Part shown: positions 1 to 52,518 of the stretch, piece after piece
How the letters are laid out: every line of letters begins with the position of its first letter
How positions within the stretch are numbered: the first letter of the stretch is position 1
NCBI GenBank assembly: GCA_045611765.1
Contig: JAZKXT010000011.1
Span: forward strand, 38,130-102,129
Source: Clostridia bacterium
GTDB lineage: Bacteria; Bacillota; Clostridia; TANB77; CAG-465
DNA length: 64,000 nt
Direction of reading: 5' to 3'
The notes under the pieces: generated by a model
What the model was told of the DNA's origin: nothing
Database searches by the model: none
Seen by the model: only the letters and a program-made list of their open reading frames with translations
Made by a program: the position numbers and the translations under genes

Positions 1-1146
1 GCAAGTATAACTCCTGGCGCTAGTTGGGTGGTGTCAATAGTAGATGGGGTGCCAATACCAAAAGGTTTTGCTATGTCTCCGCTTGAGACTGAAAGGAAAA
101 AAGATAAGGGGTTCGTAATATATGAATTGGCACCAAATGAAAAAGCGATACCAAGTAATGAAACGTACAGAACAACTATAAGCACAAGAAACCAATATGT
201 ATGGGTGCCAGTAGATGATTTTAGCAAATTTGTAAGACAAAATTTTGGTCAATCATATAAAATGTCTAATGTGTTAGGAACTGCTTATAATGATGTGGGA
301 CAAAATTATTGGGAAGTAGTATTAGATACAAAAACAAACATGCCATCGGCAACGCAAAATTCAAAATATGTAACAGCAAAAACATTAGCAGAAGTCCAAG
401 AAATGTATGAGAGTGTAAAGACATACGGCGGCTTCTATATAGCAAGGTATGAAGCGGGGCTGGATGTTGGAAATCATAGAACAACAGATGATGGAAAAAT
501 AACAACACCTGTATATTCGGCACATGGTAAAGCACCATATAATTATGTTAGATGGGCGAAGAACATGAGTGATGAGACAGGTGGAGCAGTAGAAATATCA
601 AGAAGTATATATCCAAAAACGAATACTAATTACGGCGTGGTATCTACATTGACGTATGGAGTACAATGGGATAGAACATTAGCCTGGTGGCTTGAAACAA
701 AGCCTTATAATGCTACAGGCGACGTAATGATAACAACGGAAGCTAGTTTAAATGTTAGTAGAAACTACGGAAACTATTTAAGTAATAGAATAACTCAACT
801 TGATTCGTTCGCACAATATTTATTATACAGCGGTGGGAAACTGGCAACAACATATGCTCCTGTAGGTCCAGAAAAGAGTTTAACGGAAGCGTGGTTATTA
901 ACAACGGGAGCAACAGCTGAAGCAGAGATAAACAATATTTATGATATGGCGGGTAATCTTCTGGAATGGACAATGGAAGGCAACAATGCAGCAGCTGGTG
1001 GGATTAATTACCATGTTCTTCGTGGAGGACACTATAACAACAATGGTACAGCGGATCCGGTTACTTATCGTAGCAACAACTTTGGTAATGAGAATTATGG
1101 CGCGGCGCACTATGGATTCCGTCCTTCTCTTTACATTAAGAAGTAG
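1..1146 (+). CDS. 5'-truncated pilin-family/CLec (FGE-sulfatase-like) domain protein, putative DGR target paralog 1
   Basis: Frame is open from base 1 (ASITPGASWVVSIVDGVPIPKGF). Shares VPIPKGF, NQYVWVPV, GFYIARYEAG, NNIYDMAGN-EWT and RGG...GFRP-LYIKK with 7577-9013 and 24683-26983. Confidence 0.85.
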   Translation, partial: ASITPGASWVVSIVDGVPIPKGFAMSPLETERKKDKGFVIYELAPNEKAIPSNETYRTTISTRNQYVWVPVDDFSKFVRQNFGQSYKMSNVLGTAYNDVGQNYWEVVLDTKTNMPSATQNSKYVTAKTLAEVQEMYESVKTYGGFYIARYEAGLDVGNHRTTDDGKITTPVYSAHGKAPYNYVRWAKNMSDETGGAVEISRSIYPKTNTNYGVVSTLTYGVQWDRTLAWWLETKPYNATGDVMITTEASLNVSRNYGNYLSNRITQLDSFAQYLLYSGGKLATTYAPVGPEKSLTEAWLLTTGATAEAEINNIYDMAGNLLEWTMEGNNAAAGGINYHVLRGGHYNNNGTADPVTYRSNNFGNENYGAAHYGFRPSLYIKK

Positions 1147-1236
1147 TGATGAAATTGGGATGGTGTATTGGCTTTGACGAATTGTTGCAAACTAAAGCAC
1201 GAGTGAAATAAAAGAAAATAAAAAACAATATAGATT

Positions 1237-1266
1237 GAAAGGGGTGTATTTAACTCCTTTCTTTTT
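1237..1266 (+). terminator. Probable intrinsic terminator
   Basis: gaaagggg...ctcctttc stem followed by a T run. Confidence 0.5.
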
Positions 1267-1441
1267 GTATAAAGAATAATAGTTTAATCTTTAAAACGTC
1301 ATTATATGCAATATATTAGCTCAATATGTCGCTTTTGTTCGTCTCATTTGACTTTTGCTATAAAATTTGTTACAATATATGGGCAATAAAATTAAGTATG
1401 CGTTAGATTAGGCGCATGAACAACTAATGGAGGAAAGAAAG

Positions 1442-50288: not shown

Positions 50289-50338
50289 ATTTAATAAATA
50301 TAATATATAGATGCAAATAGAATATAAGGAGCAAACAG

Positions 50339-50385
50339 ATGAAAACAAATAAAAAGGGATTAGTTTAATAGTAATTGTAATAACA
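50339..50385 (+). pseudogene. 5' fragment of an interrupted pilin-like gene (MKTNK-KGISLIVIVIT), 1 nt short in the A5G3 run
   Basis: RBS AAGGAG, ATG at 50339; ggg att agt tta ata gta att gta ata aca = GISLIVIVIT, matching the GVSLIVLIIT leaders of the intact paralogs. Confidence 0.8.
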
Positions 50386-51333
50386 GTAATAAGCACCTAT
50401 GATGAGGTAAATAAAATAGACAAAAATCCTCCCGAAAATAAAATAATATATGAGAATGAAGTAGTAGGTTGTAAAACTTACTACTTTTAATAATATAGTA
50501 GTCATGATATAATATATATGGTAGAAATTTATATTAGGAGGAAAATACTTTATGAAGATAGCAGTTTTTTCTGATATACACGGAAATTTACAAGCATTAG
50601 AAACAATAGTTCAAGATATTAAAAAAAACAACTTTGATGAAGTTATATGTTTAGGGGATATTATCGCTATGGGACCTAATCCTAAAGAGTGTATTGATTT
50701 GATAATTGAGAATAATTACAAAATGGTTTTGGGAAATCATGAATTGTATTATCTGAAAGGGACACAAATAGACGATGAAATGGGAGAAGGAGAAATACAA
50801 CACCAAAACTGGATTAAAGGACAATTAAAAGATGATTATATAGATTGCCTTAATAAATGCTCAATGAAAATAGAAATAACTAAAAATAATATAAAACTTT
50901 TATTTCAACATTTTTTAATTGATTATGATTCTAAAGATGAATATCCATTTGAGGATCTAAGTGTTGTTAAGGATGGTAGAATTAATAAGAAATTTGATAA
51001 AATTAACACAGATTATATGTTTATAGGCCATGAACATAAAAGTTTTGAAATTGAAATATATAATAAAAAATTAGTAGACATTGGGAGTAGTGGTTGTAGA
51101 AAAAATGACGAAACTTTCTATACTATTATTACAATTGAAAATGATGTTGTTAATATTGAAAAAAAATACTTGATTTATGACAGAGATAAATTTGTTTCAG
51201 CAATTAAGAATATAGAATACCCTGAAAGAAAAACAATTTCAAAAATATTTTTTGGAATAAATGATTTATAGAATATATAAAGAAATAAGAAATACAATAA
51301 AGTAATCCCTTGTCATAAGAACTTGTTAATACA
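50383..51333. mobile_element. 948-bp non-autonomous insert in a pilin gene, with serine-integrase-like attL/attR
   Basis: ACA core at 50383-50385 and 51331-51333; inner arms 50387-50407 and 51308-51328 form a 15/21 inverted repeat; removal rejoins IVIT|IIVMII in frame. Confidence 0.7.
50552..51271 (+). CDS. Calcineurin-like metallophosphoesterase (cargo of the insert)
   Basis: SDIHGN, LGD, GNHE, GHEH motifs. Confidence 0.92.
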   Translation: MKIAVFSDIHGNLQALETIVQDIKKNNFDEVICLGDIIAMGPNPKECIDLIIENNYKMVLGNHELYYLKGTQIDDEMGEGEIQHQNWIKGQLKDDYIDCLNKCSMKIEITKNNIKLLFQHFLIDYDSKDEYPFEDLSVVKDGRINKKFDKINTDYMFIGHEHKSFEIEIYNKKLVDIGSSGCRKNDETFYTIITIENDVVNIEKKYLIYDRDKFVSAIKNIEYPERKTISKIFFGINDL

Positions 51334-52518
51334 ATAATAGTAATGATAATAATAGCATCAACATTAGTTGTTTCAATGAACCTTACAAACATTATTGAAA
51401 AATCTGAGCAGGCGGTGCAAGGCTCGCGCTTGGCCTCGGCGAAAGTGACAATTGCGATGTATGCCCTATTAAATATACAACCACAAGATGTTGATGGCGT
51501 TGTAAAAAATGCTGTTGTAGACAATCAAAATAATATAATGGATGAAAGTTCATATAAGAATGTATTAGAGAAATCAGGCTTTAATTCTAACGATTACGTT
51601 ATTGTTGTTAATAAATGTGGATTTGTAGATAATATATTATTAAAAGAAGGCAAGTCATATATTGTTAAAAACACAACTCAAAATATATATTATGATAATA
51701 TGTTAGAGGCGCTAGAACAAGCAAATGCTAATGATATTATTGAAATTACAGGTGGAAAATTTGATTTTACAGAAAGTGGTTTAGTAATAGATAAGCCTTT
51801 AACAATAAAGGGAGTGAGCGCTAAGTCTAAACCGGTGTTTCTATTAGAAACGTCTGATGGTACAGGAGAACTTAATACAATAAAAAGTGGCATAATCATA
51901 AAGTCCGATAATGTTGTTTTAAGTAATTTGATTTTAAAAATATCAGAAGGATGTTTTTCTACAGGAAATCTGATATCAATACCATATAGGTCACAGTTAT
52001 ATACAGGAATTGTTTTAGATAATTGTGAATTTTATGGTTCTAATCACAGTGTACAAATTCATGCAAATAATATGAACATAAGAAATTGTATATTTATTGG
52101 TAGAGCTCAAAGAAAACACGGAATTTCTTTCTATTCTGCGCAGAACAGTAGCATATCAGGAAATATTATCATAAGAAATAATATATTCGAAGATATATAT
52201 AAGGGAATAGTTCATGAAAGCACAATTCCGTATTCTAATGTTAATGTAGAAATAAGTGGAAATATATTTGAAAATTATAAGAAAAAGGCAGTTTCTGTTG
52301 ATAATGGAGAATATCTTTCATATGTAGTTAAGGAAAATGTTTTTTCAATTCCAACGGGTGACACTGTAATAATAGATAACGGCGTGAATTTTCCTGTAGA
52401 TGCGAATGACAATTATTTTGGAGAAGAACAGCCGGTAAAATCCAATATATTTGAAGGAAACGTAAACGCAATATCATATTATATAGATGAGAGTAAAACA
52501 AGTAAGCAACAATGGTAA
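51331..52518 (+). CDS. 3' part of the interrupted pilin-like gene, with right-handed beta-helix domain
   Basis: Begins TIIVMIIIASTLVVSM (second half of the pilin helix); in-frame stop at 51316; no evident RBS; ALEQANANDIIEI..IDKPLTIKG and IxxNxF repeats. Confidence 0.8.
   Translation, partial: TIIVMIIIASTLVVSMNLTNIIEKSEQAVQGSRLASAKVTIAMYALLNIQPQDVDGVVKNAVVDNQNNIMDESSYKNVLEKSGFNSNDYVIVVNKCGFVDNILLKEGKSYIVKNTTQNIYYDNMLEALEQANANDIIEITGGKFDFTESGLVIDKPLTIKGVSAKSKPVFLLETSDGTGELNTIKSGIIIKSDNVVLSNLILKISEGCFSTGNLISIPYRSQLYTGIVLDNCEFYGSNHSVQIHANNMNIRNCIFIGRAQRKHGISFYSAQNSSISGNIIIRNNIFEDIYKGIVHESTIPYSNVNVEISGNIFENYKKKAVSVDNGEYLSYVVKENVFSIPTGDTVIIDNGVNFPVDANDNYFGEEQPVKSNIFEGNVNAISYYIDESKTSKQQW

Follow-up and report, generated by a model that had tools for sequence, protein, structure and literature searches.

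The stretch of DNA analyzed here (hereafter “the window”; 64,000 nucleotides (nt), G000:C11:38130-102129) comes from the genome of a TANB77 Clostridia member (G000; 1,098,812 bp on 12 contigs, 98.4% complete, approximately 31% G+C) and carries four pilin-like loci, namely, a gene whose 5' end lies outside of the window (locus 1), two intact genes (loci 2 and 3) and a split one (locus 4), which are listed together with their accompanying features in Table 1. An earlier note on this DNA had described the four as a dispersed repertoire of modular pilin-like proteins, each sitting alone among unrelated genes with no pilus genes in the window, and this description holds: all four are present, unrelated housekeeping genes border each of them, and a Pfam scan of 50 window open reading frames (ORFs) indicated ordinary chromosomal content (teichoic-acid/polysaccharide genes, glyA, topA, murB, ruvC, mfd, uvrA, uvrB and ligA), with no match to pilus-assembly, reverse transcriptase (RT) or recombinase families. 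The four loci are members of a large, lineage-wide family of modular type IV pilin-like surface proteins of TANB77 Clostridia, and the best explanation of what is seen, which we consider probable, combines display of this family by a PilD/PilB-T-C machinery encoded elsewhere in the genome, orphaning of the targets of a diversity-generating retroelement (DGR), turnover of paralogues between species, and the death or silencing of locus 4. The three CLec genes of the window would then be either orphaned targets or the targets of a template repeat missing from the assembly.

Table 1. Features of the four loci and extent of the DGR cassette at related genes (positions are those of the window unless a contig is named; VR, variable region; TR, template repeat; A and non-A counts are sites differing from the contig 6 TR out of those compared; aa, amino acids).
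Feature	Position	Strand	Description
Locus 1, pilin-CLec gene	1..1146	+	C-terminal 381 aa of a 483-aa frame; VR-like hypervariable stretch ~990-1133; VR vs. contig 6 TR: A sites 10/31, non-A sites 14/52
Locus 2	7577..9013	+	Leader, small pilin head, CLec domain; VR-like stretch ~8859-9000; VR vs. contig 6 TR: A sites 22/43, non-A sites 18/82, two gaps
Post-VR element with 7-bp GC hairpin	9002..9100	+	Homologous to C6:544-643 (post-VR element of the DGR-linked paralogue) and to the post-VR DNA of two other paralogues
TR-distal flank homologue	9173..9558	+	77.6% over 392 nt vs. DNA 3' of the contig 6 TR; includes a small 84-90 aa ORF (9303-9557)
Locus 3	24683..26983	+	Leader, acidic middle domain, CLec domain; VR-like stretch ~26835-26970; VR vs. 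contig 6 TR: A sites 12/22, non-A sites 22/50
Hairpin 3' of locus 3, 16-bp stem	26996..27032	+	-16 kcal/mol, z -5.7, 0/200 shuffles fold as well
Locus 4, left piece	50339..50490	+	ATG, leader 5' half one base out of frame, tail (TYDEVNKIDKNPPENK..., with homologues among the tails of further truncated-leader minigenes), hairpin 50459-50486
Inserted metallophosphoesterase, 239 aa	50552..51271	+	Pfam Metallophos 1.5e-15
Locus 4, right piece	51319..52518	+	Leader 3' part (TIIVMIIIAST) without start codon, spacer, beta-helix payload; ORF 51343-52518
Cassette, contig 6			Full cassette
Cassette remnant, C3			658 nt, with a fragment of the MutS-like ORF
Cassette remnant, C7			173 nt
Cassette remnant, window locus 2			103 nt of post-VR homology and a 392-nt match to the DNA on the far side of the TR; 2.36-kb core missing

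The loci share a leader with the consensus KG(V/I)SLIV, of which a DNA profile built from eleven intact leaders recovered 14 full-length copies in the genome (E 8e-23 to 3e-15), all sharing orientation within their contigs, as well as three truncated 5' pieces, one 3' piece (the body of locus 4) and about five divergent copies; judged by the sequences, such similarity is far beyond chance. Each protein of the family opens with a short basic signal whose last residue is Gly and continues with a hydrophobic alpha-1 helix that, unusually, lacks Glu5; a small pilin head and a C-terminal adhesin-type payload would make up the rest. That different payloads (CLec, acidic domain plus CLec, and beta-helix) follow one and the same leader, as had been noted earlier, is borne out by structure models and composition: the AlphaFold2 model of the locus 2 protein (pLDDT 87) has the DGR variable protein TvpA as its best match (2y3c, E 4.5e-4), followed by FGE, Mtd and TaqVP; residues 131-410 of the locus 3 protein are 22.5% Asp+Glu; and residues 105-391 of locus 4 are predicted to form a right-handed beta-helix best matching a PL6 alginate lyase (7dmk, E 9e-5). 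Pfam FGE-sulfatase matches on the three CLec C-termini of the window are weak (E 2e-4 to 1e-3, under the curated cut-off). Genome-wide, CLec/FGE payloads are found in 11-13 paralogous genes, a BspA-type leucine-rich repeat follows the leader in a single 939-aa member (LRR_5, 9e-89), the beta-helix occurs once, and the remaining payloads, those of two further members among them, have no assigned fold.

Among the 13 genomes of the genus (G000 included), the pilin N-module of one paralogue has 11-29 matches in 10/13 (again counting G000), 2-3 in two more and none in two, and the locus 2 protein has 1,596 relatives at E<=1e-3, the few named ones being all “hypothetical”. The locus 4 beta-helix payload has 6 homologues (7 matches with the window protein itself) in a collection of 5.8 billion proteins; three of these (P0122-P0124) sit on intact KGITLIALIITLII leaders, while P0125 and P0127, the two inspected of the other three, have a different, camelysin-like N-terminus, that of P0127 matching camelysin weakly (Peptidase_M73, E 1e-3).

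As for the individual genes, the locus 1 leader (KKKGVSLIVLVITIIVMIIL) lies at C11:37854, approximately 276 nt upstream of the window start. The locus 2 ORF (7550-9013) is intact and encodes 487 or 478 aa, depending on the start chosen, with the ribosome-binding site (RBS) favoring the start at 7577 given in the earlier note; that of locus 3, likewise intact, opens at 24659 with an alternative start at 24683 (774 or 766 aa) and is followed by a hairpin (Table 1) read as an intrinsic terminator.

The machinery for displaying such proteins is encoded outside of the window. The earlier note had held that a genome without a prepilin peptidase and PilB/PilC would contradict its reading, and this genome has PilD, PilB/PilT/PilC and one DGR: an operon on contig 4 encodes PilC, PilT, PilB, a minor pilin, PilD and a PilN-like protein (T2SSF 1.8e-36; T2SSE 1.9e-93 and 1.6e-34; A24_N_bact, corresponding to PilD, 6.6e-30; PilN 3.5e-4), and a second A24 peptidase is found on contig 12. 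The 141-aa pilin adjoining PilD (contig 4, 56915-57337, minus strand) begins with MKKGISLIVLVITIIVMIII, which is the same family leader. A short basic leader ending in Gly and followed by approximately 20 hydrophobic residues, as in class III signals, is seen in MKTRTNSNRQNQKG/VSLIVLIITIIVMIILATTVML, MRSKKG/VSLIV... and KKKG/VSLIV... (slash after the Gly), and the proteins are predicted to be cleaved by the PilD homologue, after which the PilB/PilT/PilC machine would present them as its minor or tip subunits.

The intact DGR cassette resides on contig 6 and consists of a CLec target gene, a MutS_I-like ORF (E 3.5e-4), bAvd (3.6e-13), an RT (349 aa, RVT_1 1.8e-15) and a TR, a layout corresponding to the MSL-plus-avd architecture D in the relevant passage of Wu et al. 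(PMC5758913). Its TR and the adjacent VR differ at 20/48 A sites and at only 1/88 other sites, and the respective pair of a relative (G011) does so at 21/49 and 1/87. The genome's other two RT matches are an RVT_1-only protein of 512 aa, with no CLec gene near it, and a pseudogene on contig 7 (58793-59278, minus strand; six stops, YQDD motif fragment) that adjoins the pilin-CLec paralogue C7b and may represent a second, dead DGR; an RT together with an accessory gene is found in the genome (contig 6) and not in the window. Among five complete paralogues, the VR, written in NNC-type codons, is the least conserved segment (identity 0.32-0.55 vs. 0.61-0.87 in the neighboring segments), which, together with the structural match to TvpA, upholds the earlier assertion that the CLec payloads are DGR variable-protein domains.

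The assertion that a DGR acts on the window genes fares worse. All three window VRs differ from the only TR found at many sites other than adenines (Table 1; cf. the 1/88 of the cognate pair), so none of them shows the adenine-only pattern of a TR/VR pair, and BLAST of the three returned no non-coding partner except the contig 6 TR (74.6% over 71 nt). What is left of the cassettes next to the paralogous targets ranges from the full set on contig 6 to short stretches (Table 1), and locus 2 has both flanks but none of the core that separates them on contig 6. It is probable that duplications of target genes took the DGR cassettes along and that the majority of the cassettes subsequently decayed, leaving behind orphaned VRs, three of them in this window, with locus 2 keeping both core flanks. 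The post-VR hairpin of locus 2, located 3 nt after the stop codon, does not fold significantly better than expected (z -1.65), and shuffled sequences fold as well as its cognate copy on contig 6. The DNA 3' of the TR (contig 6, 3081-3386) and that 3' of locus 2 (9303-9557) have in common a conserved small ORF of 84-102 aa; the copy at locus 2 has a weak SSB match as its sole Pfam match (E 0.051), and the pair could be a further DGR-associated gene.

Among relatives, RT matches were found in 18 of the 41 genomes of the family surveyed and in 4/13 of the genus; the four RT-bearing genomes of the genus have 13, 17, 3 and 5 CLec matches, and six RT-less ones have 0-2. As the N-module is expanded in 10/13 genus genomes and the DGR RT is present in 4/13, the pilin repertoire and the DGR are separable layers.

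Locus 4 is a dead or silenced member of the family, the leader of which has been interrupted by horizontally acquired DNA and the start of which has been frameshifted. The frames of its ATG (50339) and of the leader KGISLIVIVITVIS differ by one base, the shift falling in an A5G3 run, and approximately 0.97 kb comprising a tail, a hairpin, a promoter-like stretch and the metallophosphoesterase gene separates the two leader parts. The phosphoesterase has no match at E<=1e-20 in 12/12 genus relatives and, at the family level, matches of <=35% identity in 6/60 genomes, while homologues of 50-83% identity occur in metagenome-assembled genomes of other gut Firmicutes. Most leaders have A5-A7 runs at the Lys codons that precede the Gly of the cleavage site, and it is there (50351-50358) that locus 4 is off by one base, making slipped-strand switching at the leader A-runs conceivable. 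Two candidate repeats around the insert were set aside: a 19-nt inverted repeat (50349-50367 with 51298-51316, 84% complementary) is one of 24 comparable pairs in this AT-rich 1.15 kb and was, therefore, not built on, and a 21-nt direct repeat (D3) has copies that are out of register with each other in the leader, itself an internally repetitive sequence.

From one species to another, intergenic spots gain and lose pilin genes. No pilin occupies the positions of loci 2 and 3 in 4/4 relatives inspected, and at locus 2 the empty-site comparison reveals replaced intergenic content and not a clean insertion, due to which no target-site duplication can be read there. At the SDR-uvrB position, where locus 4 is located, the content varies among the relatives inspected: in G004, the SDR gene is immediately followed by an intact pilin of 406 aa; in G011, three small ORFs, none of them a pilin, separate it from uvrB; in G010, the position is taken by other genes, with no leader; and in G007 and G005, it is other genes that come next to the SDR gene, with a pilin approximately 3.7 kb further on in G005. 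The contig 7 site before engB, in turn, has no pilin in 3/5 relatives and different pilins in the other two. In the 79%-complete G010 genome, 8/15 close paralogues of the contig 7 pilin payload contain one or two in-frame stops, which could be widespread pseudogenization, a recurrent split or assembly noise.

Several observations weigh against the explanation favored here, and some of them are also what its competitors build upon. Glu5 is not found in any of the window leaders or in the operon pilin, position 5 being Val or Ile, and Pfam N_methyl (PF07963) has no match on the window proteins even at E<=1, so on these two sequence criteria the proteins fall outside of the type IV pilins in the strict sense; the 141-aa operon pilin, moreover, has nothing but chance matches among PDB sequences (E 1.5). 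One could, hence, argue that these are not pilins at all, being type II membrane/signal-anchored surface proteins whose N-terminal helix is merely leader-like, yet this seems very improbable when the gene adjoining PilD in a PilB/T/C/N operon carries the same leader and the locus 2 model predicts a helix at 15-69 (55 residues; low confidence at 36-47), five strands at 93-127 and then the CLec domain, a 55-residue N-terminal helix and beta head that, together with the genomic context, would fit a pilin. The only pilin-type motif match with Glu5 genome-wide, a paralogue at C12:166707 (KKGISLVEIV), further ties the family to N_methyl (E 0.002, 18.0 bits, below the 21.2-bit cut-off) and to GspG (5wda, E 0.036), and an Atlas lookup of residues 10-128 found the nearest cluster to have N_methyl in 43% of its members (score 0.89; a lead only). 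The family is, thus, read as a Glu5-less derivative of type IV pilins. The orphan status of the VRs is likewise not without its difficulties: the RT-less G008 and G012 have 19 and 9 partial CLec-domain matches; a framework common to the paralogues C3a, C7a and C5 departs from the resident TR at 19-22 of 88 non-A positions, which, as far as the sequences tell, implies another TR, past or unassembled; and four paralogues are situated at contig breaks. Because of this framework and these breaks, some orphan VRs may be live targets. Extended to the window, the argument would be that its CLec genes are live remote targets of a DGR, via a second TR lost in assembly gaps or occasional retargeting from contig 6, and there is something to be said for it: remote targets are known for non-phage DGRs (as covered in a passage of PMC5758913), one of the 14 remote VRs of G011 differs from its TR at 22/49 A sites and only 5/87 others, six contig ends fall inside these genes, and the post-VR element with its hairpin is kept at locus 2. 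The other 13 remote VRs of G011 comprise ten with 14-29 non-A differences and three that align over only 19-55 nt (5-10 non-A differences). This alternative is, nevertheless, unlikely, as the contig 6 TR is the sole non-coding partner of the window VRs, with which they are not even colinear (locus 2 has two extra codons), the window VRs also differ among themselves, and one intact DGR-type RT is all that was found.

Orphaned targets and paralogue turnover also do not readily account for the split leaders. The three truncated leaders of this genome (window 50339, C7:87939 and C7:90047) break at one codon, after I-T-x-x-x, and two of them have tails homologous to each other and to that of a truncated leader in the species G004, in all of which the motif xY[YND]E recurs along with a PP/TP-EN stretch and a hairpin; a common break codon and a homologous tail across two species are not what plain decay would explain. 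Similar junction motifs occur in G047 and G022, on contig 7, a leader half followed by three genes and another followed by one gene stand in tandem ahead of an intact pilin, and the locus 4 cargo gene is, as stated above, missing from all 12 genus relatives. All of this could be taken to mean that the leader is an integron- or shufflon-like recombination site at which promoter-bearing cassettes insert and payloads are exchanged and which, together with the DGR, constitutes one programmed surface-variation system, much as the earlier note had proposed; we regard this as unlikely, however. Neither the window nor the DNA next to the split leaders encodes a recombinase, the genome, 98.4% complete, was found to have no serine recombinase and no ISL3 transposase, and of its three tyrosine recombinases only one belongs to an island, the 22-bp att of which is unrelated to the leader. 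Inversion is unlikely because the leaders are co-oriented, and the five complete paralogues retain the same nearest pair in 9/11 of the alignment windows that were scored (the VR window is among the two exceptions), which leaves no leader/payload discordance and, thus, no sign of payload swapping via the leader. The insert, furthermore, did not restore locus 4; of seven truncated leaders from relatives, four turned out to be contig ends and two frameshifts, so that two of the three internal ones are plain frameshifts; and a scan of the contig collection for the tail motif gave 2 chance matches, neither with a leader nearby. A narrower variant, in which the leader would merely serve as a capture site where small cassettes recombine in at one fixed codon with a recombinase acting in trans, building up integron-like arrays of leader halves as on contig 7, strikes us as quite improbable. 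Besides the conserved tail and a terminator hairpin, such a cassette would bring its own promoter and cargo genes as well as a new 5' half of the leader with RBS and ATG, and the pilin gene would come out of the insertion either intact, as on contig 7, or silenced, as at locus 4. Same-codon breaks and homologous tails would also be expected from a small paralogous gene family, and the truncated-leader minigene family is, for now, an unexplained residue.

Two further observations concern mobile elements in the vicinity of such leaders. The G004 minigene lies approximately 80 nt from an ISL3 element, and the idea that its tail is the end of this insertion sequence was rejected, the tail not being the end of that element. 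The island on contig 12 (79036-90620; 11.5 kb, bounded by a 22-bp direct repeat, tyrosine integrase confirmed by Pfam; XRE-like, Xis-like and methyltransferase-like ORF labels read by eye from the translations) is followed, after 235 nt, by a frameshifted pilin-like gene whose leader is KKDGISLITLII.

The modular pilin-like family with orphaned DGR targets, therefore, remains the preferred explanation, in which variation comes in several layers (turnover of paralogues, DGR mutagenesis that is past or local, and disruption) that do not make up one recombination system. Of the single combined system proposed earlier, the repertoire and the DGR ancestry stand at the genome level; the unity does not, since the pilin repertoire is also present in DGR-less genomes and the layers can be separated. 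Apart from these loci, the window has a tandem pair of paralogous genes of approximately 350 aa inside the polysaccharide cluster (41508-42560 and 42569-43633; no Pfam match), the 3' ends of which are 93% identical over 278 nt and the upstream parts 76%, and a single tRNA-Lys(CTT) gene (15062-15137, minus strand) beside two small unannotated minus-strand ORFs.

TANB77 is an uncultured gut order with genomes of approximately 1.1-1.8 Mb. In the genome studied here, about twenty modular pilins take up an estimated 2% of the length, and many of these pilins are, or once were, DGR targets, suggesting that the breadth of adhesion is a major selective pressure in this lineage. Full, partial and vanished cassettes beside paralogous targets, moreover, offer a natural record of DGR birth together with its targets and of its subsequent decay. 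An operon pilin whose leader lacks Glu5 is unusual for bacteria: how is such a pilus assembled?

Parallels to parts of this arrangement, and differences from each, can be found in several known systems. The R64 shufflon acts on the PilV pilin by joining a constant N-terminus to alternative C-terminal segments, for which it needs the Rci recombinase and inverted sfx sites within one locus, whereas neither a recombinase at the leaders nor inverted sites were found here. TvpA, the best structural match of the payload, is a lipoprotein and not a pilin. The Treponema denticola system to which it belongs (2y3c; PMC5758913) resembles the present one in being a cellular DGR with scattered paralogous CLec targets, but its remote VRs, as described in the corresponding passage, differ from the TR at adenines only, unlike those of the window. 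In Streptococcus sanguinis, the type IV pilins PilB and PilC are likewise modular (as outlined in part of PMC8179133), a pilin N-module being fused to a C-terminal adhesive module, vWA in PilB and a lectin in PilC, in a monoderm type IV pilus, display being predicted in our case; here, however, about twenty dispersed paralogues take the place of minor pilins encoded in an operon, Glu5 is missing, and the payloads are mostly DGR-type CLec domains. Within TANB77 itself, a 2024 study (PMC11680825) tied a pilin-like protein of this order to immunotherapy response; its passage on a Tad-like (Tad/CpaF-type) pilus cluster names pilin-like proteins as hallmarks of the lineage and makes no mention of the PilB/T/C operon, the KG(V/I)SLIV family or a DGR. 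A GspG-type pilin domain is listed among the rare VR-bearing domains in the relevant part of PMC11661182, and no literature was found on a diversity-generating retroelement with a type IV pilin or on TANB77 with a retroelement. Parallels also exist with the type V pili of Bacteroides, whose tip adhesins are DGR-diversified and place a CLec head on a pilus scaffold (per the portion of bioRxiv 10.1101/2024.11.15.621889 dealing with them): both cases involve a gut commensal, a DGR-variable CLec head on a pilus-subunit scaffold, and numerous modular, variably present pilin genes, but the pilins here are type IV-like and not type V, belong to another phylum, are mostly cassette-less and include one cognate TR/VR pair, so that the family described in this work provides a type IV-like counterpart to the DGR-diversified Bacteroides pilus tips.

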